Source of the DNA: a virus
Lineage: Duplodnaviria > Heunggongvirae > Uroviricota > Caudoviricetes > Peduoviridae
DNA length: 31,660 bases
IMG/VR virus record: IMGVR_UViG_2541047727_000009
Direction: 5' to 3' (one strand)
The notes below the pieces were generated by a model that saw only the letters and a list, made by a program, of their open reading frames with translations, was not told the origin of the DNA and did not search any database. Every line of letters begins with the position of its first letter. Position 1 is the stretch's first letter. The position numbers and the translations under genes were made by a program. This document shows positions 1,958-28,163 of this stretch, one piece after another.

Positions 1958-4405
1958 TTAACCGTCATGCATCATGCTGGCACGGGCGCGCGCACGTTTA
2001 TCCCGCTCGTATTTTTCGAGCGCATCCTGTAACTGGCGGTCGAGCTGAGTCCCCGGCGCAGTACCGCCCGTCAGACTGATGTGATATTCGTTTTTACTCT
2101 GGTCCACATAAGAGCGGCCAGCCGGTGCCGTAACCGGCTGATAAGCCTGATAGCCTGCATAAGAGCTGGTCGCCGGAATATAACCACCGGTGCCATACGT
2201 GGCGGCATGAGTTCTGGCGGCGGTCTGGTCAAGCGTGCCTGACTCTTTGTTGATAACACCGAGTTTTTCCAGTACCCAGTCAATACCGCTGCGCAGTTTG
2301 TTGAACGCATTAAGCGGCAGCATCAACGCGTCAGCCAGTGCCTGCCCGAACATGACGCCCGTATCACGGCAACGGTTCAGGGTGTCCCGAGTGGCTTTGA
2401 CCGGGGCAATCAGGTTTTTAAACCACTGCCACGCGGCCTGTAACTTTTCGCCCAGCCAGTCAAACACCGGCTTAAGTGGCGTGAACAGTTCCCCCACCGG
2501 CGCAAATGCCGCTTTCAGCCCTTCAACCACACCGCCAAAGAATGCGCTGACAGGCTCCCAGTATTTACGGATAAGTAACGCCCCGGCGACAATGGCGGCC
2601 ACCACGGCCACAACCGGCCAGCTAATCGCCCCGATGGCCGTCATAACAACACTGCCAACCGTCGTGAAGATTGCTCCCATTGCGCCTGCTGCCGCGATGA
2701 TGGCATTGATGCCGGTGATAACCGGCCAGGCTACGAGGCCAATGGCACCGATGACACCAATCAGCGCCAGTGCACCACCGACAATGATGCCGATGGTTGA
2801 CGCCAGTGATTTGTTTTTCTGTATCCAGCCGTCGAGTTTTAACACATACTTTGTGGCCGTCTGCGTGAGCTTACGCAGTGCGCCTTCCTGCTGGTCAAAC
2901 AGGTCAGTCCCCACCGCCTCATAAGCGGACTGAAACTCCTTAAAGTCACCGCCGAGGTTGTCCTGCATGATATTTACCAGCTCGGCGGTCTTCCCGTCTG
3001 AGGCTTTAAACGCAGCGGTCAGTTTGTCCAGCTTTCCGGTTGAGGCGGCAGTCATCAGCACGGCGGCGGCTGAGCTGGCCTCCTCCCCGAAAATAGTTTT
3101 CATGTATTCAGCCTGCTGGGCAGTACCGAGCCGGTTTTTCTCAAAACTGGCCTGCATTTCTTTCAGAATGGTAAATACTGGTCGAGTATTCCCTTTACTG
3201 TCTGAGGTTTTCACGCCAAGCTCTTTCAGTGCATCCCATGCTTTTCCCGTCGGTGCCTGCAGGCGGCTTAACACGGCACGGCTTCCCGTCCCCGCCATTG
3301 AACCGGTAATTTTTGCATCATGCAGCGCCCCGACCATTGCGGCGGTTTCTTCAATGCTGACACCAGCATTTTTTGCCACAGGTGCGGCATAGGTCAGCGC
3401 ATCGCTCATGCCATCAAAATCGGCGGCGGTTTTGTTCATCGTCATGGAGAGAACATCCCCGATATGAGCGACCTTATCGTTTGAAAGCTGAAAGGCGGAT
3501 TTCATCCCCATCAGCAGGGCGGCGTTTTCTTCCATCGTGCGACGGTTCGCCAGCGCCATATTCAGCGTGACCGGCGTTGCCGCCTGAATGGCATCAACAT
3601 CCCCACCGGCTTTCGCAATAATAATCTGCGCACCGGCTGCATCATCTGCCGAGGCTGCGGTATTGTCGCCGAGCTGGCGCGCCTGCTTGCGTAGTGCAGC
3701 CATTTCGGCGGAGTCTTTTGCCACACCGAGCACAGCCTGCAATTCTGAGTTTTTCTGCGCAAACTCATAACCGGGCATCAGCAACTTAACTCCGGCCATC
3801 GTTCCCGCAGCAGCAATCCCCACACCGGCAGCGCCCACTGAGGCCATATTTCCGGCCAGTTCCTTTCCGGCCTGATAACGCTGTTTTACTGCGTTAAGTT
3901 TTGCCTGTTGTGCACTGACACGCGCCAGCGCGTCACGCTGACGGTTAAGCTGTGCGGTGGTTTCACTGATACGGTTTTTCAGTCCCTGCTCATCATGTGC
4001 AAGATTGCGGGTATTAATTCCCACAGCGGCCAGTTCCCGCTGCTGGCGTTTAACGGAATCTGTCAGGCGGTTATATTTCGCCTGTAAGTCCTCCGCCGCA
4101 CGCTTTGCGGATTCCAGCACTTTCGCCTGAGCACGGGTCGGACGTTCAGTGTTTTTAAACTGTGTGGCAAGGGCTTCGGCTTCCTGCCGTGCCTTTTCAA
4201 GTGCATGACCAGTCACGGCAAGCTGTGCGCTGGTCTTGCGAAATCCCTCAATACGGGATGCGTGACCGTTCAGCTCGCGCAGTGATTTTTGTGTTTCCCG
4301 GATATCCCCCGACAGCGACTTACTCGCTGTGCGGATGGATTTAAACGGGCGGGATGCCTGGTCAACAGCCCTGAGCAATACCTGTAATTTTACATTGTTA
4401 CTCAT
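1958..4405 (-). CDS. T: tail tape measure protein T, 815 aa
   Basis: 815-aa Ala/Gly-rich ORF with coiled-coil N-terminus and hydrophobic glycine-rich central segment typical of tape measure proteins; start ATG overlaps the E' stop codon. Confidence 0.9.
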   Translation of the reverse strand: MSNNVKLQVLLRAVDQASRPFKSIRTASKSLSGDIRETQKSLRELNGHASRIEGFRKTSAQLAVTGHALEKARQEAEALATQFKNTERPTRAQAKVLESAKRAAEDLQAKYNRLTDSVKRQQRELAAVGINTRNLAHDEQGLKNRISETTAQLNRQRDALARVSAQQAKLNAVKQRYQAGKELAGNMASVGAAGVGIAAAGTMAGVKLLMPGYEFAQKNSELQAVLGVAKDSAEMAALRKQARQLGDNTAASADDAAGAQIIIAKAGGDVDAIQAATPVTLNMALANRRTMEENAALLMGMKSAFQLSNDKVAHIGDVLSMTMNKTAADFDGMSDALTYAAPVAKNAGVSIEETAAMVGALHDAKITGSMAGTGSRAVLSRLQAPTGKAWDALKELGVKTSDSKGNTRPVFTILKEMQASFEKNRLGTAQQAEYMKTIFGEEASSAAAVLMTAASTGKLDKLTAAFKASDGKTAELVNIMQDNLGGDFKEFQSAYEAVGTDLFDQQEGALRKLTQTATKYVLKLDGWIQKNKSLASTIGIIVGGALALIGVIGAIGLVAWPVITGINAIIAAAGAMGAIFTTVGSVVMTAIGAISWPVVAVVAAIVAGALLIRKYWEPVSAFFGGVVEGLKAAFAPVGELFTPLKPVFDWLGEKLQAAWQWFKNLIAPVKATRDTLNRCRDTGVMFGQALADALMLPLNAFNKLRSGIDWVLEKLGVINKESGTLDQTAARTHAATYGTGGYIPATSSYAGYQAYQPVTAPAGRSYVDQSKNEYHISLTGGTAPGTQLDRQLQDALEKYERDKRARARASMMHDG

Positions 4406-4881: not shown

Positions 4882-5400
4882 TCACAGGCCGATATTGCGG
4901 CGGTGTTGCTCCAGCCGGTCGACGCCGTTCACCTTCTCAATCATGTTGATGGTGTCGATTTCGACCAGCTCCTTACCGTCCATCGTCAGCCGGAAATAGG
5001 TGCAGACCACGGAGATTTTCGACTCGGTGTCTTCTCCCTGTTTGCCCTCGCCGGTGTCGATTTCTTTCTGACGTCCACGCATGACCACCTCGACGGCCAC
5101 CGTTTCGCCGGTATCGTCGCGCTGGTAAGAGCCTGCAAAACGAATCGGTACGGAATCCACACCGGTTGCGGCGTAAAGCTCCCAGATAACCGAATCCGGG
5201 AAGCCACCGAGCGACCACTCCATTGACAGCGCATCTTCATCAAGGCCGAGGTCTACCGGTGCGCTGCCGTTCATCCCCGCACCGCGATAGTTTTCGAGCT
5301 TACGGGTCAGTTTTGGCAGCGTGACGGACTTCGCGACGCCCTGATAGCTGTAGCCGTTCAGAAAGACGTTCATTAACTTGAGTTTGCGCGGCATTGCCAT
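4882..5400 (-). CDS. FII: tail tube protein FII, 172 aa
   Basis: 172-aa ORF directly downstream of the sheath gene; size and order equal P2 FII. Confidence 0.9.
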   Translation of the reverse strand: MAMPRKLKLMNVFLNGYSYQGVAKSVTLPKLTRKLENYRGAGMNGSAPVDLGLDEDALSMEWSLGGFPDSVIWELYAATGVDSVPIRFAGSYQRDDTGETVAVEVVMRGRQKEIDTGEGKQGEDTESKISVVCTYFRLTMDGKELVEIDTINMIEKVNGVDRLEQHRRNIGL

Positions 5401-18862: not shown

Positions 18863-20635
18863 ATGACCATCACCACAGACACCACTCTTTTACACGACCC
18901 GCGTCGTCAGGCGGCGCTGCTGTACTGGCAGGGATTTTCCGTGCCGCAGATTGCCGCCATGTTGCAGATGAAACGCCCGACGGTGCAGAGCTGGAAACAG
19001 CGCGACGGCTGGGACAGCGTTGCCCCCATCAGCCGTGTCGAAATGAGTCTGGAAGCGCGGCTGACCCAGCTCATCATCAAACCGCAGAAAACCGGCGGTG
19101 ACTTCAAGGAAATTGACCTGCTCGGACGCCAGATTGAACGACTGGCACGGGTCAACCGCTACAGCCAGACCGGCAACGAGGCAGACCTTAATCCGAACGT
19201 CGCTAACCGCAACAAAGGCGGGCGGCGCAAACCGAAAAAGAATTTTTTCAGTGACGAGGCCATCGAAAAGCTGGAGCAGATTTTCTTTGAGCAGTCTTTC
19301 GAATATCAGTTGCACTGGTATCGCGCCGGGCTTGAGCACCGCATCCGCGATATCCTGAAATCCCGCCAGATTGGCGCGACGTTTTATTTTTCCCGCGAGG
19401 CGCTGCTGCGCGCCCTGAAAACCGGTCATAACCAGATTTTTCTGTCGGCCAGTAAAACGCAGGCGTATGTGTTCCGCGAATACATCATCGCCTTTGCCCG
19501 TCTGGTTGACGTTGACCTGACCGGTGACCCGATTGTCCTGGGCAATAACGGCGCAAAACTGATTTTTCTCGGCACCAACTCCAACACCGCACAGAGCCAT
19601 AACGGCGACCTGTACGTCGACGAGATTTTCTGGATCCCGAATTTTCAGGTACTGCGTAAGGTGGCATCAGGTATGGCCTCACAGAGTCACCTGCGTTCGA
19701 CCTATTTCTCCACCCCGTCCACGCTGGCGCACGACGCCTACCCGTTCTGGTCAGGTGAACTGTTCAACCGGGGACGCGCCAGCGCCGCCGAACGCGTGGA
19801 AATCGACGTCAGTCATAACGCCCTTGCCGGTGGGCTTCTCTGTGCGGACGGCCAGTGGCGGCAGATTGTCACCATTGAGGACGCCCTGAAAGGTGGCTGC
19901 ACGCTGTTCGACATTGAACAGCTCAAACGCGAAAACAGCGCCGACGATTTTAAAAACCTGTTCATGTGTGAATTTGTTGACGACAAGGCGTCGGTGTTCC
20001 CGTTCGAGGAGCTGCAACGCTGCATGGTCGACACGCTGGAAGAATGGGAAGACTATGCGCCGTTTGCCGCCAATCCGTTCGGCTCCCGCCCGGTCTGGAT
20101 TGGTTACGACCCGTCACACCGTGGCGACAGCGCCGGATGCGTGGTACTGGCACCGCCGGTGGTGGCCGGTGGCAAATTCAGAATACTTGAGCGTCACCAG
20201 TGGAAAGGCATGGACTTTGCCACTCAGGCGGAATCCATCCGCAAACTCACCGAAAAATACAACGTCGAATACATCGGTATTGATGCCACCGGCCTCGGTG
20301 TCGGCGTGTTCCAGCTCGTGCGCTCGTTCTATCCCGCCGCGCGCGATATCCGCTACACGCCGGAAATGAAAACCGCAATGGTGCTCAAGGCAAAAGACGT
20401 CATCCGCCGTGGCTGTCTGGAATATGACGTCAGCGCCACCGACATCACCAGCTCGTTTATGGCTATCCGCAAGACCATGACCAGCAGCGGACGCAGCGCC
20501 ACTTATGAGGCCAGCCGCAGCGAGGAAGCCAGCCACGCCGACCTCGCCTGGGCGACCATGCACGCCCTGTTAAATGAGCCACTCACCGCCGGTATCAGCA
20601 CCCCGCTGACATCCACCATTCTGGAGTTTTACTGA
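18863..20635 (+). CDS. P: terminase large (ATPase) subunit P, 590 aa from internal ATG
   Basis: ATG at 18863 preceded by GAGGT; 590 aa; stop overlaps the Q start (ATGA). Confidence 0.9.
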   Translation: MTITTDTTLLHDPRRQAALLYWQGFSVPQIAAMLQMKRPTVQSWKQRDGWDSVAPISRVEMSLEARLTQLIIKPQKTGGDFKEIDLLGRQIERLARVNRYSQTGNEADLNPNVANRNKGGRRKPKKNFFSDEAIEKLEQIFFEQSFEYQLHWYRAGLEHRIRDILKSRQIGATFYFSREALLRALKTGHNQIFLSASKTQAYVFREYIIAFARLVDVDLTGDPIVLGNNGAKLIFLGTNSNTAQSHNGDLYVDEIFWIPNFQVLRKVASGMASQSHLRSTYFSTPSTLAHDAYPFWSGELFNRGRASAAERVEIDVSHNALAGGLLCADGQWRQIVTIEDALKGGCTLFDIEQLKRENSADDFKNLFMCEFVDDKASVFPFEELQRCMVDTLEEWEDYAPFAANPFGSRPVWIGYDPSHRGDSAGCVVLAPPVVAGGKFRILERHQWKGMDFATQAESIRKLTEKYNVEYIGIDATGLGVGVFQLVRSFYPAARDIRYTPEMKTAMVLKAKDVIRRGCLEYDVSATDITSSFMAIRKTMTSSGRSATYEASRSEEASHADLAWATMHALLNEPLTAGISTPLTSTILEFY

Positions 20636-21669
20636 TGAGCAAGAAAAAAGGGAAAACACCGCAACCTGCGGCAAAAAAAATGACCGCCAGCGCCCCGAAA
20701 ATGGAGGCATTCACCTTTGGTGAGCCGGTGCCGGTACTCGACCGCCGTGACATTCTGGATTACGTCGAGTGCATCAGTAACGGCAGATGGTATGAGCCGC
20801 CGGTCAGCTTTACCGGTCTGGCGAAAAGCCTGCGTGCTGCCGTGCATCACAGCTCACCGATTTACGTTAAACGCAATATTCTGGCCTCGACATTTATCCC
20901 GCATCCGTGGCTTTCGCAACAGGATTTCAGCCGCTTTGTGCTGGATTTTCTGGTGTTCGGTAATGCGTTTCTGGAAAAGCGTTACAGCACCACCGGTAAG
21001 ATCATCAGACTGGAAACCTCACCGGCAAAATATACCCGCCGTGGCGTGGAGGAGGATGTTTACTGGTGGGTGCCGTCCTTCAACGAGCCGACACCTTTCG
21101 CGCCCGGTTCCGTGTTTCACCTGCTGGAGCCGGATATTAATCAGGAGCTGTACGGTCTGCCGGAATATCTCAGCGCCCTTAATTCTGCCTGGCTGAATGA
21201 GTCGGCCACGCTGTTCCGCCGCAAGTATTACGAAAACGGCGCTCATGCCGGATATATCATGTACGTCACTGATGCCGTGCAGGATCGCAACGATATCGAA
21301 ATGCTCCGCGAAAACATGGTGAAGTCGAAAGGCCGCAACAACTTTAAAAACCTGTTTCTCTATGCCCCACAGGGGAAAGCCGACGGCATTAAAATTATCC
21401 CCCTCAGTGAAGTGGCGACGAAGGACGATTTTTTTAATATCAAAAAAGCCAGCGCCGCTGACCTGCTGGATGCGCACCGCATCCCCTTTCAGTTGATGGG
21501 CGGCAAGCCGGAGAACGTCGGGTCACTGGGAGATATTGAGAAAGTGGCAAAGGTCTTTGTCCGCAATGAACTTATCCCGTTACAGGACAGGATCCGCGAG
21601 ATAAACGGCTGGCTCGGTCAGGAGGTCATCCGCTTTAAAAACTACTCACTGGACACTGACAACGGCTGA
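20635..21669 (+). CDS. Q: portal protein Q, 344 aa
   Basis: 344-aa ORF translationally coupled to P; last structural gene before cos as in P2. Confidence 0.9.
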   Translation: MSKKKGKTPQPAAKKMTASAPKMEAFTFGEPVPVLDRRDILDYVECISNGRWYEPPVSFTGLAKSLRAAVHHSSPIYVKRNILASTFIPHPWLSQQDFSRFVLDFLVFGNAFLEKRYSTTGKIIRLETSPAKYTRRGVEEDVYWWVPSFNEPTPFAPGSVFHLLEPDINQELYGLPEYLSALNSAWLNESATLFRRKYYENGAHAGYIMYVTDAVQDRNDIEMLRENMVKSKGRNNFKNLFLYAPQGKADGIKIIPLSEVATKDDFFNIKKASAADLLDAHRIPFQLMGGKPENVGSLGDIEKVAKVFVRNELIPLQDRIREINGWLGQEVIRFKNYSLDTDNG

Positions 21670-21939: not shown

Positions 21940-22533
21940 AAGCACGTCTGACGCATGCAAAAAAATGCATCTTTTGTATGCAATGCAGAAATCAAACAAA
22001 TTTGAGTATAAATTAACGATGAGCCCTATGATTTTTAACTTCATCCCTAGCAGTTAACAGCAAATTAAAAGTCTTTATCTGCCTGATACTGCCCTGAACA
22101 GTAGTAACAACGATACTCAACATCACCATCATCCATTGGCCAAATGCTCATTTCGCTGCTGGGAGCCTGCGCACCACAACAATCGCAAGCAACATCAATA
22201 TCATCACTATCTTCATTCTGACAAAAAGTGCATTTGTAACCCGTAGAAGACTCATCAGAGGGAATCATTGTGTCGTTAGAACACTCAGGACATTCATAAA
22301 CTTTCCAATCGACCAATTCATAAAATTTATGCCTAACCCCATAAAAAGCTTCAGCCTCTCTTTCTTCAACTTCTTTCTTGGCTTCAGAGAGCCTATGAGA
22401 GTATTCATCAGCTAAAGTTTGAAATATCTGTAAGTTATCTGCACCGACTTCATCTTCAAGATTAAAAAGATCGAAGATATCAATAAACTCAGCTACCCCC
22501 CGGACTAGGCGTCCAATACACAAGCGCGCGTCT

Positions 22534-22537
22534 TTAG
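22534..22537. repeat. IS5 target-site duplication TTAG (left copy; right copy at 23733-23736)
   Basis: Identical 4-bp TTAG directly flanks both IS5 termini; fits the IS5 YTAR target preference. Confidence 0.7.
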
Positions 22538-23732
<1,195 letters not shown>

Positions 23733-24264
23733 TTAGGAGTAAGTCTGAATTGATAATGCTCAATATCATTTCTTAAATTCTTTATCCAAGCTATATCATT
23801 ACAAAAATCAATATCTACAAAATCAACCCCAGTTATGCCACATTTCTCACACTTAGCAAAGTTTAGTGCCTGATCTAAGGTTATCGTATATGGCCTAGAT
23901 TTCCCTTCAATGAACCTTCCTAAATCAACGCCATCCTCGATAATTTTATTATATGCGTCTAAAAGACTGATTGATTCTCGCTTTGCTCTTGTAGCTATTT
24001 GTTTATAGCAATCGGAATACAGTAAATTTTCATCTACTGTAACAATATATAACTTCAACACCAGCTCAAGAAAATGTGACAAATGCAAGATAGCAAATTT
24101 ATATTGCCGCAATTCTCCTCTCTGCCCTAACTCATACTTTGCTAAAGCTTCATTAAAACTATCAATAGCATTCTCTTGTAAATCCAGTTGATATTCCATT
24201 ACATCACCTAAAAATTTCATATTTATATGAGTGCAGAAAACCATTCAGCACTCATTGCTTATAA

Positions 24265-24996
24265 TCAATTATCTAATATTGATACAACCTCTCCCGTTCG
24301 TATGTCGACGCGCGCAGCTATAGTCTGCTTAACCACTCCACCATAAGCATTAGTACCGCGAAACGTAGTTTTCACAATAGCGTACGGGTCTTTATTCAAA
24401 ACCAGATGATATACCGTTGACACATGTTTATAAGATGAATCATCGTTCATATTATCTTTAATTAGTTTTTCCAATGGACGATAAGAACCATCCCAACCAC
24501 TAAAATTACTCTGAAATGTATCAAGATTGATTTTATTGTTTAGTGAATTCGGGTCATTTTCATAATCATTAAAGCACCACCCAAGAACATCACCGAGTTT
24601 CAACTCATCATCTTTGGTAAATGTATACTCACTCATGCAGGCATAAAACGCATCTGACGCGGTGGCTGGAACTTCCTTAAAATCAATGTAACTATTCACA
24701 ATATCGTGTCGTGTTTTCTTTGACTCGTTCCGATATTCCTTGAGTGTTTTTTCCCCATATTCGAATGTTTTTTGGACTTTGTGTTCTGCAACGGTTGATG
24801 TTTCAGTTTTATCAACTGGCTGGCTTTTTTCTGTTGGATAGAGTATTGAACCAATTATGCTCAATACAAAACCTCCTCCGAGATAAACCGCACTTGCACG
24901 TTTGCGGTTTGGCATTCGCACCAGTGATGGCTTGATTAACCCGATGAAGAAAGCAACGAAAAAAGCGAGTGATAGAAAAGCGATTATAGTATCCAT
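24265..24996 (-). CDS. hypothetical membrane-anchored protein (two N-terminal TM helices plus ~180-aa hydrophilic domain), 243 aa from internal ATG
   Basis: ATG at 24996 preceded by AGGA; hydrophobic stretches IIAFLSLAFFVAFFIGLI and VYLGGGFVLSIIGSILY; stop lies 65 nt upstream of the HEPN-like gene start, same strand; AT-rich. Confidence 0.65.
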   Translation of the reverse strand: MDTIIAFLSLAFFVAFFIGLIKPSLVRMPNRKRASAVYLGGGFVLSIIGSILYPTEKSQPVDKTETSTVAEHKVQKTFEYGEKTLKEYRNESKKTRHDIVNSYIDFKEVPATASDAFYACMSEYTFTKDDELKLGDVLGWCFNDYENDPNSLNNKINLDTFQSNFSGWDGSYRPLEKLIKDNMNDDSSYKHVSTVYHLVLNKDPYAIVKTTFRGTNAYGGVVKQTIAARVDIRTGEVVSILDN

Positions 24997-25425
24997 AGCT
25001 ATCCTTTTTGCATCATCCACATAAAAAATCGACCTCATGTTAGCAACAGGATGCTTACTTTTGAATATTTGTAAGTTGTTAGCTCTCCAACCTAACTCCT
25101 TTCAACCGTTAAAAACCGGCACCAACGCAGTAAAAATATGTCTGTCAACTAACGCCTCGCTTCGCTCGTTGTTCAACCCCGCCAGCCCTGAAAACAAGTT
25201 TCACGACTGGCGGCGTTCTCTATCGTCTGCGTGGTGGTGGCGCAACTCTGGACTGACCGATATAGTTAAGCCGCCCGTAATTATCCCGGACTATTTCGGC
25301 ACACCCGACCAGCTCATCGGGCGTCAGATTTTCGTTGACCATAATCCGCTGTAAACGCTGAACAATAGCCATCAGCCTGATATTTTTAGTTTTATGGTGC
25401 GGTATCTCGCTTGGTATTCTGTGCA

Positions 25426-25881
25426 TTATCCAAGCCACCCGTTTTGCTGTGCACGCTCCATCTGTTCATCTGAATAGTTCCATGCTCCATCCGTGGCAAC
25501 CATTGCCCCGCCAGACATCCCCGTCTCTGGTTCATACATAACAGCAAGGCCGAGCTGATGCATAATTTCATGATTAATTCTGAATACCAGACCACGCTCA
25601 CTAAGTTCTTTCCAGTTCACAATCTCATATGCGCCTGTATTAAGCAGCTCAATACTTAGCAAGACATAATCTTCCAGCCAGTCTGACAGGTCAGTAACAT
25701 CTGTTATCCGGGCTTCAACCTTTCGCCCCGTATACACACCCTGCACCCATTCATGCAAAATCAACGTGTCCCCGTGCTCATAATTACGGTCATTTTTCCT
25801 AAACTCTGCGCGTTTCTTTCCTTCCAGCACAAGGTCGAAATATTTTGCGTGCAGCTTTACCTCGTGAATTTTTGCCATCAT
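25426..25881 (-). CDS. ASCH/PUA-like (DUF3850-like) protein with C-terminal HExxH motif, 151 aa, translationally coupled to gene A
   Basis: ATG at 25881 overlaps the A stop (ATGATG) with GGAG 8 nt upstream; N-terminus KIHEVKLHAKYFDLVLEGKKRAEFRKNDRNYEHGDTLILHEW resembles ASCH-fold domains as I remember them; C-terminal INHEIMHQLGL carries HExxH. Confidence 0.65.
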   Translation of the reverse strand: MMAKIHEVKLHAKYFDLVLEGKKRAEFRKNDRNYEHGDTLILHEWVQGVYTGRKVEARITDVTDLSDWLEDYVLLSIELLNTGAYEIVNWKELSERGLVFRINHEIMHQLGLAVMYEPETGMSGGAMVATDGAWNYSDEQMERAQQNGWLG

Positions 25882-28163
25882 GTCCACTCCATTACTGTTG
25901 AGAATCCCGGCCACTCATCAGCGACCGGATACGTGAATTTTTTCCCGTCATAATTTACGGTTGCCCCACGCGCCAGCGCCTCAAGCTCCCATCGCTGCGG
26001 CCTGATACCGTTCTGAGCAAGGTCAACGCGGATACGGGTGATTTGCAATCGTTCCGGCCGGGTCAGTCTGGCCGATGGTGCAATTTCATGCGGTTTTAAC
26101 GGGCTTCCGTTTCTTTGCTGACGATTTGGCGTTCCCAGCCCGTGTTTTAATGCGCCCCTGAGCGCCTTCACGACCTCCGGCTCATTCCATTCGATAACAC
26201 CGTCATCAACCAGATTAAGCACTGCTGCGGCGTGCTCAGAAGGTGTGGGAGCCGGTAACGAAGTATCACCACCGGTGACCTTTCCACAGTTATTGACAGG
26301 ACTCCGAGGCGCGGCGATGCCGCTTTTTAAAGTCAAAGGCTCAACGACCGGAACTTTCGGCACAATGCGCCAGTCCGTCGTTCTGGTGATATGAATATGA
26401 CGCGCGCCGAGATGCGGCGCGTAAATGCCGACCACTCTCTCGACTTCTTCCTCGTACTCGTTAACGTCATCCGACGGGCTACGGGCAACCCTGACAGTCT
26501 GACAATCGCGCGGGACATTTGCCCCACCCTGCGCGCTGATATACAACGCAAAATCACCACTGTCTGCAGCAGCGCGAGCAGCCTCGACGCGTTCGTCAAA
26601 CTCATCAGCAATACTGACGCCGCGAGGCAATTTGCGTAGTTCACGGTAAGCCCCCATTGTCGGCAGGCCAACCGTTTTAAATTGCGGGATGCGCCACGTT
26701 GACGCCCATGCGGTAACAGCCGCCGCTGTGTCTTTCAGCGGTCTGCCGGTATCGTTATCGAGCTGACCATCCAGTGCATAGCCGTCGATGTTTTTTGAAA
26801 TGTATTTCGCGATATATCCCGCAGCACCGCCCCGGTTAAGGTGTTTTGCCTGAAAACGGTTTCGCGCGGCTCCTCTTTCGTCGCCATCCTCTTTGAGCGC
26901 ATAGCGACGCATGATTTCGATAATCTGGTTGCGCTGGCGTGGATTACAAAAAAGCATCATATGCCAGTGCGGCGTTCCGTCGTGGTGTGGCTCGACGACA
27001 CGCAAACCGTAGGCCTGTAAATCATTATCCTTGAATGCCGTGCGCATCAGGCTCCAGATACGGCAGAGATAACGCTGCGCATCCTTTGGATTAAATGCCT
27101 CATCGTTCCAGCCGTGATTAAGCTGAACGGTTTTACTTTCGCCTTTTCCGACCTGACGTGTCGGGTGATACTTTGACGGCGCGGTCAGCGTGATAAACAT
27201 CCCCACATCACCCTCTGCGGCGGCGTAACGCTCAATACCGGCAATGGTGTTCATCAGCTCCATCCGGCGAATTTCAGGATTAGAAATACTGCCCATCACC
27301 TTACTGATAAGGTCGATGCGCTCGCCGGTTTCCCTGTTTTCAAGGTCACACGATTTAAGAAATTCCAGATTTGCCTGGCGGCGCGCACGCACATCACGAA
27401 TGGCATGTTTACTGGCATAAGGAGAACGGTCTTTATTGACCTCCCCGACAGCAATCAGTAACGCCTCATGCCAGCGCATACGCTGGCCTTTAAGCTGATG
27501 AGTCCACCACTCATCGTTAAACAGGCGGGCAATGGCAGAATATGCCTGCCTCGTGGTCATCTGTCCTTTACGGTATTTTTTCCAGTAGAGCGGGGAAATA
27601 TTGAAAGCACGTGCAGCGCCAGCAACATGACCATAGAGGTGAGCCTGCGCCTCATCCGTAAACAGCGATTCTTTTTCGCCATGTGCATCAACCCAGGCAT
27701 CGCAGAGTTCCTCATACATCATGAAAAGCTGCGATGAGATACGGGCAGCAAACTTTTTCAGCTCCTTGTCATTCATTCCTGGCAGGCGCGCATAGTGGTC
27801 ACGCTCTGCCAGAAACAGCAACGACGCGTCGGTGTTCATTTCATGGCGCTGATTCACACGCTCAATGCGCGGCCATAAACGACGCTGAAAAGTGGATGTG
27901 AGGAAATAAAACCCGTGCACCGGGCTTTTATTGCGCCGGATGTAGTCATAGCGTGAAGTAAACAGCGAGCGCAAAAAGTAAGGCAGGCGGTTAATCGTGG
28001 ATAAAACACCTTGCACCTGACGCATCTCGTCACGTGTAAGGGGTCTTTCGCGCCCGACAGCCTCGCGTGGCGCGTTCCATGCATAAGCACCGGTAAACGC
28101 CTTACCGGTGCCTGCGGCAAATGCTGACGGAGGGACAAAACGCCCGGAGGCTTTAACGGCCAT
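25878..28163 (-). CDS. A: replication initiation protein A (rolling-circle initiator), 761 aa from internal ATG
   Basis: Large ORF downstream of B and four small orfs; ATG at 28163 gives 761 aa (P2 gpA size); ORF-track start at 28205 is an alternative. Confidence 0.85.
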   Translation of the reverse strand: MAVKASGRFVPPSAFAAGTGKAFTGAYAWNAPREAVGRERPLTRDEMRQVQGVLSTINRLPYFLRSLFTSRYDYIRRNKSPVHGFYFLTSTFQRRLWPRIERVNQRHEMNTDASLLFLAERDHYARLPGMNDKELKKFAARISSQLFMMYEELCDAWVDAHGEKESLFTDEAQAHLYGHVAGAARAFNISPLYWKKYRKGQMTTRQAYSAIARLFNDEWWTHQLKGQRMRWHEALLIAVGEVNKDRSPYASKHAIRDVRARRQANLEFLKSCDLENRETGERIDLISKVMGSISNPEIRRMELMNTIAGIERYAAAEGDVGMFITLTAPSKYHPTRQVGKGESKTVQLNHGWNDEAFNPKDAQRYLCRIWSLMRTAFKDNDLQAYGLRVVEPHHDGTPHWHMMLFCNPRQRNQIIEIMRRYALKEDGDERGAARNRFQAKHLNRGGAAGYIAKYISKNIDGYALDGQLDNDTGRPLKDTAAAVTAWASTWRIPQFKTVGLPTMGAYRELRKLPRGVSIADEFDERVEAARAAADSGDFALYISAQGGANVPRDCQTVRVARSPSDDVNEYEEEVERVVGIYAPHLGARHIHITRTTDWRIVPKVPVVEPLTLKSGIAAPRSPVNNCGKVTGGDTSLPAPTPSEHAAAVLNLVDDGVIEWNEPEVVKALRGALKHGLGTPNRQQRNGSPLKPHEIAPSARLTRPERLQITRIRVDLAQNGIRPQRWELEALARGATVNYDGKKFTYPVADEWPGFSTVMEWT

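Follow-up and report, generated by a model that had tools for sequence, protein, structure and literature searches.

The stretch analysed here (hereafter the window) comprises the 31,660 nucleotides (nt) of the IMG/VR record IMGVR_UViG_2541047727_000009 (Peduoviridae) and is a P2-like prophage with a Peduovirus-type backbone, in which the order along the plus strand reads tail, capsid, terminase, portal gene Q, cargo, gene A, B, cox, C, and int. Its subject gene, referred to as orf97-like in the following, lies on the minus strand at 24265..24996 and encodes a membrane protein of 243 amino acids (aa) with two transmembrane (TM) helices that is identical to WP_004099447.1 and belongs to phrog_3403. 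The gene is situated in the variable "tin/old" cargo hotspot, which extends from the replication gene A to the portal gene Q, and is followed on the same strand by the remains of a HEPN gene that is interrupted by the insertion sequence IS5. An earlier note, made from the DNA letters alone, had proposed that the membrane protein and its HEPN-like neighbour form one operon and a module for abortive infection (Abi) or superinfection exclusion. The gpA–gpQ hotspot of P2 has been described as a phage-defence locus by Rousset et al. 2022 (PMC9122126), whose Table S5 holds both versions of the window locus, intact and IS5-split; the entry reads 'DUF3850/ASCH + hypothetical + ...' and is not among the systems tested there.

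The open reading frame (ORF) of the orf97-like gene runs from an ATG at 24996..24994 to a TGA stop at 24267..24265 and is preceded by a Shine–Dalgarno (SD) sequence, AAGGA (25002..25006, minus strand; read from the sequence), that is located 5 nt 5' of the ATG in a region conserved with coliphage 186. The ORF lister prefers an in-frame ATG at 25038 (257 aa); since this longer start lacks an SD and since 28 of 28 aligned homologues begin at the MDT/MEx position and measure about 243 aa, the coordinates given in the earlier note are correct. The ratio of nonsynonymous to synonymous divergence (dN/dS) amounts to 0.04–0.28 in 21 pairwise comparisons (the window gene plus six homologues), and it is therefore a functional coding gene under strong purifying selection. 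Over its full length (243/243 aa, no gaps), the protein shares 77 % identity with 186 Orf97 (NP_052294.1; BLASTP, E 6e-149), a relationship that was first found via tblastn of phage genomes, and both proteins fall into the same PHROG (phrog_3403, E 5e-147). Judged by these matches, the window protein is a member of the 186 Orf97 family, which is known but barely characterised. For orf97, the RefSeq entry of 186 carries the remark "expression from plasmid blocks 186 infection". The same entry assigns the gene to the p95 operon, which is controlled by LexA and has the order tum, partial terminator t95a, orf97, terminator t95b; orf97 is the second gene of this operon, and no other gene lies between it and the right genome end. 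Together with its position in a defence hotspot, this relationship supports the idea of exclusion that had been put forward for the gene.

The Orf97 family comprises 159 clusters in a protein collection at 90 % identity, and its source-named members stem from Enterobacterales and are all labelled hypothetical. Homologues are also encoded by isolated phages of Yersinia, Salmonella, Erwinia, and Klebsiella as well as by the Vibrio phage VHML. In a survey of 20 species-level orf97 loci, the gene was enclosed by an A homologue on one side and the portal gene on the other in ten, and the window gene likewise lies between the A/ASCH/orf68 genes and Q, that is, at the cos–portal end. Among 5426 complete Escherichia coli genomes, 84 carry orf97. 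The gene also outlasts the phage: it is the sole recognisable gene of a decayed P2/186-like prophage in Yersinia rohdei (between cpxP and fieF; locus L016, 6082..6729) and is likewise alone in a remnant near dps in Enterobacter asburiae (L017, 6001..6732), and this persistence hints at host-level selection for the gene. With regard to published work on orf97, the search returned Owen et al. 2017 (PMC5322425) only, where the passage on the p95 "SOS operon" credits it to Brumby et al. 1996 (Virology 219:105); a 2026 preprint on P2/P4 hotspots does not mention orf97, and searches with the RefSeq accessions of the window and with PDC-S64, the PADLOC model matched by the neighbouring HEPN gene, found no papers.

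The description of the gene product as a two-TM membrane protein holds up as well. Kyte–Doolittle hydropathy in 19-aa windows exceeds the threshold of 1.6 in two segments (residues about 3–21 and about 34–54) and never rises above 0.42 past residue 55, and the AlphaFold2 model places helices accordingly, TM helix 1 at residues 2–21 (24934..24993) and TM helix 2 at residues 31–52 (24841..24906; these and the following features all on the minus strand). Between them lies a basic loop, KPSLVRMPN(RKR) (residues 22–30, 24907..24933), and the inter-TM stretch KPSLVRMPNRKRAS (residues 22–35) has a net charge of +5 (five K/R, no D/E), while the N-terminus is devoid of basic residues; P23, V26, M28, and R31 are invariant across the 28 homologues. 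With this charge, the loop is assigned to the cytoplasmic side by the positive-inside rule, and the C-terminal domain accordingly to the periplasmic side. This conserved soluble domain (residues 76–243, 24268..24771) is composed of a helical subdomain, which contains C120 and C141, and a C-terminal α+β module (about residues 159–243) with the motif SGWDGSYRPLE...Y-H..T...F-G-N-G. Both cysteines are invariant, reaching as far as a homologue from Sulfurimonas with 26 % identity, and the domain is probably disulfide-bonded. All of these features (the pair of N-terminal TM helices, the basic loop, and the soluble domain, which measures about 170 aa and holds the two cysteines) are kept in 28 of 28 aligned members.

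For the hydrophilic domain the earlier note could assign no motif, and this is borne out: scans against Pfam, NCBIfam, and PADLOC gave no match, PHROGs returned an unannotated family only, a sequence profile found nothing in the PDB, a Foldseek search with the Orf97 model yielded nothing significant, and no known lipoprotein or transporter family was matched in Pfam, NCBIfam, or the PDB. A profile search at E<=1e-3 collected 2,821 clusters, many of which match only the last ~85 residues (about 159–243; 24268..24522), where the pattern FS.WDGS...LE..IK..M.D..SY.H..T......F.G.N.FG recurs. In those distant relatives that were read, this module forms the C-terminal end of the protein or lies close to it and is preceded by an export signal or a membrane anchor, for example, a lipobox (LAGC in Oxalobacter, VGC in protein P0247), a cleavable signal peptide (P0338), a zinc ribbon with a single TM helix (Xenorhabdus, P0343, P0359), or several TM helices. 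Pfam recognised the module in none of ten distant relatives that were scanned, and as far as its sequence tells, it is an undescribed extracytoplasmic domain. The best structural matches point in the same direction, namely HdeA/HdeB for the helical subdomain (HdeA with 66/76 residues at 2.0 Å) and the NTF2-like periplasmic domains of VirB8/TraE and TcpC for the α+β module, all of them extracytoplasmic proteins; the match scores are modest and were used as support for location only, and the HdeA family of Pfam does not match the Orf97-like sequence. Because of the positive-inside rule, the two invariant cysteines, and the relatives with signal peptides or lipoboxes, the conserved C-terminal domain is predicted to be periplasmic and tethered to the inner membrane.

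Taken together, we regard the window gene, with moderate confidence, as encoding a stand-alone, prophage-encoded superinfection-exclusion protein of the 186 Orf97 type. The inner membrane would serve as anchor of the protein, whose conserved domain would face the periplasm and hinder incoming P2/186-type (possibly also other) phages at an early step after adsorption. The step most likely to be blocked would be the passage of the tail tube, of ejected proteins, or of the DNA across the periplasm and the inner membrane, and exclusion would work without any downstream gene. A domain located in the periplasm is a poor fit as direct partner of a cytoplasmic RNase and a good fit for interference with DNA entry.

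As to expression, a promoter scan revealed no consensus sigma-70 promoter upstream of the orf97-like gene, and neither a Pfam scan nor the annotation places a tum/DinI gene there. No convincing LexA box was found upstream either; LexA-box matches in the window are no more frequent than expected by chance, and the assumption that the SOS control of 186 is retained here was dropped on these grounds. The 186-like relatives at loci L008–L013, L037, L043, and L045 do carry tum/DinI upstream of orf97. The ~90 nt of upstream leader are partly conserved with 186, including the SD. A conserved TGnTA[AG]CAT is found ~45 nt 5' of the orf97 ATG, both in the window (about 25036..25044, minus strand) and in 186 (L031, about 3955..3965), where it overlaps the t95a partial-terminator region; this sequence is a candidate extended −10 element and may represent a putative orf97-specific promoter.

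Downstream of the orf97-like gene (all features on the minus strand), a 65-nt spacer that is part of the HEPN cassette (24200..24264) leads to the 5' fragment of the HEPN gene (23733..24199, codons 1 to about 155, including the Rx4H sequence RNDIEH). This is followed by a copy of IS5 (1195 bp, 22538..23732; ends read from the sequence, thousands of 99 %-identity matches annotated as IS5) and by the 3' fragment (22065..22537), which encodes C-terminal helices and Cys-rich zinc ribbons, covers positions 258–331 of PDC-S64, is colinear with residues 160–311 of the intact protein, and remains as a 152-aa ORF (22065..22523). The element contains its transposase ORF (22684..23700), is bounded by 16-bp terminal inverted repeats, and is flanked by a 4-bp target duplication, TTAG, at 22534..22537 and 23733..23736. 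IS5 thus breaks the HEPN gene after about codon 155, and in the window it is a pseudogene; in PHROGs, the two fragments have been entered as separate families (phrog_22563 and phrog_25835). The intact allele is found in the same prophage without IS5 in E. coli GN04171 (311 aa, WP_004099450.1), where the gene and its 65-nt leader occupy 4714404..4715404 of NZ_CP095520. Its start at ATG 24199 (MEYQLDL..., SD AGGTGA) corresponds to the RefSeq form and is common to homologues; in a 326-aa form starting from ATG 24244, the 15 extra residues fall within residues 1–18, for which the predicted local distance difference test (pLDDT) is below 50.

The assignment of the neighbour as HEPN-like and as a putative nuclease by the earlier note stands as far as the family is concerned, for the intact protein is a true HEPN protein; as an intact neighbour, however, it does not exist in the window. 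The protein matches PDC-S64 (E 3.6e-17), which we take, from the PADLOC model name, for a single-gene candidate. Of the Rx4H motif (R142-N-D-I-E-H147), N143, I145, E146, and H147 are invariant and R142 is kept in at least 90 % of 26 homologues. A model of protein P0121, which is 99 % identical to the E. coli GN04171 protein, displays the four-helix fold of HEPN proteins. The zinc ribbons at the C-terminus contain invariant cysteines, the PDB entries retrieved with a sequence profile were zinc-ribbon noise only, and no export signal is present. The family is widespread in Proteobacteria, and homologues with 71 % identity or less occur without orf97, namely in an integrative and conjugative element (ICE), a filamentous prophage, an integrase island, beside a reverse transcriptase, in E. 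coli islands, and on a plasmid. At three of these homologues other neighbours are close by: in the Klebsiella ICE (L038, 4303..6510) the HEPN homologue starts 2 nt after a gene for a DtrJ-like membrane protein and a PIN_12 gene lies downstream, in the Pectobacterium filamentous prophage (L042, 4658..5939) an Xre_MbcA_ParS_C antitoxin-like gene is positioned 19 nt 5', and in a metagenome (L047, 4001..6528) an RVT_1 reverse transcriptase follows 95 nt 3'. We read the HEPN–zinc-ribbon gene as an exchangeable one-gene cargo, distinct from orf97, that has come to lie in the same hotspot.

The distance of 65 nt on the same strand, as reported in the earlier note, holds for the start at ATG 24199, and so does the statement that no obvious terminator intervenes. 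A consensus scan found no canonical terminator in the spacer, and its hairpin (24227..24255; 8+3 bp stem, minimum free energy −18 kcal/mol, z −2.1) lacks a U-tract; a clear promoter was not seen in the promoter scan of the same 65 nt. Because the genes are on the same strand, 65 nt apart, and not separated by a terminator, a shared transcript of orf97 and HEPN is plausible. Leader hairpins occupy the same position in three more lineages, with other stem sequences and again without U-tract (L037, about 4988..5019; L043, about 3948..3974; L045, about 3945..3975). RNAalifold on the four orf97–HEPN spacers returned no pairs, the hairpins having been set out of register by MAFFT.

The remaining neighbours delimit the hotspot. 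Its right border is the portal gene Q (20635..21669, plus strand), with the cos region between Q and the cargo, and its left border is the replication endonuclease gene A (25878..28163, minus strand; identified from the annotation of an identical prophage and by synteny). Between A and the orf97-like gene lie, both on the minus strand, a conserved flanking gene for a DUF3850/ASCH protein similar to P2 orf91 (25426..25878; Pfam DUF3850 1e-17, ASCH 2e-10; annotation) and orf68, a hypothetical gene of 68 aa upstream (25220..25426; RefSeq annotation of the identical prophage, phrog_11386). A conserved hairpin element, AACGCCGCCAGT..GAAAC..TTTCAG..CTGGCGGGGTTGAAC (25160..25226, minus strand), is a putative boundary element of the hotspot. 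This element of ~55 nt is found 5' of orf97 in P2-like prophages and directly 3' of it in 186-like phages, and in some P2-likes it flanks orf97 on both sides; copies were noted in phage 186 (L031, 4745..4790) and at loci L008, L009, L010, L022, L003, L007, and L034. The element may serve as hotspot boundary, as terminator, or as recombination anchor, and its placement suggests that orf97 itself is an inserted cassette in P2-likes.

Are orf97 and HEPN partners? The earlier note had based a module on the pairing of a membrane protein with a nuclease and had suggested co-occurrence of homologues as a check. As a rule, such co-occurrence is not found: this HEPN allele is present in one of the 84 E. 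coli genomes with orf97, and a HEPN homologue in none of the 20 species-level orf97 loci. The opposite extreme, that homologues of the two genes never co-occur elsewhere, does not strictly apply either, as the pair recurs in three 186-like prophages, but this is expected from position alone, and such co-occurrence was confined to P2/186 hotspots. All HEPN homologues with at least 81 % identity that were looked up lie directly after orf97 with a spacer of 64–66 nt, and those with 81–83 % identity belong to 186-like prophages (Enterobacter hormaechei and two metagenomic contigs). Megablast homology of the window to other orf97 prophages ends at 24264–24278, by the orf97 stop codon. Past this point, E. 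coli P2-likes carry at least six kinds of downstream genes (HEPN of 311 aa, a tail-anchored protein of 260 aa, two-TM proteins of 215–232 aa, and proteins of 429, 224, and 89 aa), and orf97 is the sole cargo gene between A/tum and Q in prophages of Kluyvera and Erwinia tracheiphila. The tail-anchored protein follows orf97 in APEC O78 and MS7163, for example, and the two-TM family does so in S164, 50579417, P24A7b/Esc31, SCAID, and BS74R-D. The window Orf97 is 97.5 % identical to the copy of APEC O78, which has another partner, and 77–78 % identical to the three HEPN-adjacent copies; similarly, Orf97 of L043 shares 96.7 % identity with the partner-less copy of Kluyvera. In the three 186-like prophages, the synonymous divergence (dS) of orf97 is 0.19–0.39 as opposed to 1.8–2.9 (saturated) for the adjacent HEPN gene, and the two genes therefore have different histories. 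On these comparative grounds, we read the adjacency as positional linkage between neighbours that are not partners, because orf97 is a resident hotspot-border gene in 186-likes, so that any cassette adjoins it, because Orf97 identity tracks the phage backbone and not the partner, and because the dS values of the two genes disagree. In the window itself, orf97 is intact while the neighbouring HEPN gene has been destroyed by IS5.

One kind of downstream gene encodes the two-TM family already mentioned, that is, fast-evolving proteins of ~215–232 aa with 24–39 % identity among five alleles and no match in Pfam or PADLOC (L003, 148..795; L004, 143..841; L007, 4259..4915; L033, 2691..3389; L034, 2708..3370). 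This family was matched in 34 complete E. coli genomes, directly 3' of orf97 in every one that was cross-checked, and is placed likewise in three of three phages that have it, including the Salmonella 186-like phage BIS20 (27382..27957); phage P22H4 carries a truncated member, an ORF of 89 aa. The family may thus be a genuine Orf97 partner. Ten alternative downstream partners gave no PADLOC match, and their sole Pfam match was ORC-CDC6-like, in a 575-aa protein of Rahnella.

That the Orf97-like and HEPN proteins nevertheless constitute one two-gene Abi or exclusion module, with a membrane sensor or anchor and an RNase effector or with these roles reversed, is unlikely. Such a module would account for the layout on one strand, 65 nt apart and without terminator, for the recurrence of the pair in four lineages (the E. 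coli P2-like and the three 186-like ones) with a 64–66-nt spacer and a co-positioned hairpin, and for the fact that every looked-up HEPN homologue with at least 81 % identity adjoins orf97. However, adjacency is forced in 186-likes, where orf97 is the border gene, and exclusion is recorded for 186 orf97 alone, with no gene downstream; orf97 furthermore occurs with at least six other partners or with none, HEPN homologues with 71 % identity or less occur without orf97, PDC-S64 reads as a single-gene candidate, dS is discordant, Orf97 identity goes with the backbone, the Orf97 domain is predicted periplasmic and HEPN cytoplasmic, and the window retains an intact orf97 next to a dead HEPN gene. 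A toxin–antitoxin pair, with Orf97 as antitoxin of HEPN, was also considered and rejected, since each gene occurs alone and since the loss here struck the presumed toxin and left the antitoxin in place. Improbable, too, is a broader version, in which Orf97 forms the constant part of a modular system and a variable downstream gene (usually the two-TM protein of ~220 aa, with HEPN as an occasional substitute) provides specificity or the effector. Every examined orf97 of E. coli P2-likes is indeed followed by one same-strand gene, and the two-TM family always comes directly after orf97 where cross-checked. Yet the 34 genomes with the two-TM family are for the most part clonal copies (27 at or above 99 % identity), the partners are unrelated in sequence and in predicted location, orf97 stands alone in 186, in the prophages of Kluyvera and Erwinia, and in prophage remnants, and linkage can also arise if blocks are moved as units by recombination anchored in orf97 and the hairpin element. 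We consider it quite unlikely, in particular, that Orf97 is a periplasm-facing sensor or anchor for which the swappable gene (mostly two-TM, occasionally the HEPN RNase or the tail-anchored protein) supplies the effector or specificity subunit. If true, a periplasmic event at phage DNA injection would be signalled through the inner membrane to a nuclease in the cytoplasm; to our knowledge, no HEPN defence system with transmembrane signalling of this kind has been described.

Two further explanations leave the downstream gene aside. The retention of orf97 alone in the decayed prophages of Y. rohdei and E. asburiae, together with the wide distribution of its C-terminal module in non-phage contexts, would suit a lysogenic-conversion factor with no role in phage defence; a chaperone or stress protein tethered to the membrane on its periplasmic side and of use to the host would be one example. 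We deem this very unlikely, as the sole experimental note on the Orf97 family concerns a block of phage infection and the gene is located in a defence hotspot. It is highly improbable, finally, that the Orf97-like protein acts as an abortive-infection or membrane-damage toxin, triggered by infection or SOS, instead of blocking entry. A small two-TM protein would be suited to this role, 186 orf97 is co-induced with the antirepressor Tum during SOS, and membrane proteins are common as Abi effectors (PMC9122126). However, conservation resides for the most part in a folded soluble domain of ~170 aa rather than in a pore-forming segment, and relatives swap both TM helices for a lipid anchor or a signal peptide, which is incompatible with a TM-based toxin.

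Stand-alone exclusion by the Orf97-like protein has its own difficulties, and the following points weigh against it. The exclusion phenotype rests on a one-line RefSeq note for the 186 protein, it is carried over by analogy to the window copy with its 77 % identity, and the block seen upon expression from a plasmid may be an over-expression artefact. The assumed block of DNA entry is deduced from a topology that is itself predicted. Moreover, the regulatory context is unlike that of 186, with neither tum/DinI nor a LexA box nor a strong sigma-70 promoter. Finally, the constant HEPN–orf97 adjacency at 81 % identity or more and the linkage of the two-TM family may leave room for a functional link to downstream genes.

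With the relationship to 186 Orf97, genes hitherto called "hypothetical" in RefSeq and in P2 hotspots become nameable as Orf97-type exclusion genes (84 of 5426 E. coli genomes, 159 clusters, and several isolated phages). The locus furthermore illustrates that adjacency inside a cargo hotspot is poor evidence of a functional module, and the window offers a natural example, in which IS5 kills a HEPN defence candidate and spares the neighbouring exclusion gene. A periplasmic block of P2/186-type myoviruses would be a tractable handle on how DNA from contractile tails crosses the inner membrane.

Small membrane-anchored exclusion proteins that stop phages after adsorption are well known, for example, Imm and Sp of T4, SieA of P22, and gp15 of HK97. 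Searches in Pfam, PHROGs, and PADLOC and fold searches of the PDB revealed no relation of Orf97 to Imm, Sp, SieA, or gp15 in sequence or fold, and the likeness to these proteins is one in mode of action only. The P2 genes tin and old occupy the same cos-proximal locus as the window gene but are not homologous to it. Compared with the HEPN toxins HepT, RnlA/LsoA, and Csm6, the HEPN protein of the window is distinguished by its C-terminal Cys-rich zinc ribbons; no MNT-type antitoxin adjoins its gene, and the gene is interrupted by IS5. The closest known system is that of 186 itself. There, orf97 lies behind tum and a LexA-repressed promoter and no gene comes after it, whereas in the window it lies behind the DUF3850/ASCH gene and orf68 on a P2-type backbone and is followed by a cargo gene; in both phages, however, it encodes a protein of 243 aa with two TM helices and a soluble domain, lies beside cos and the portal gene, and is the first gene past the replication block.

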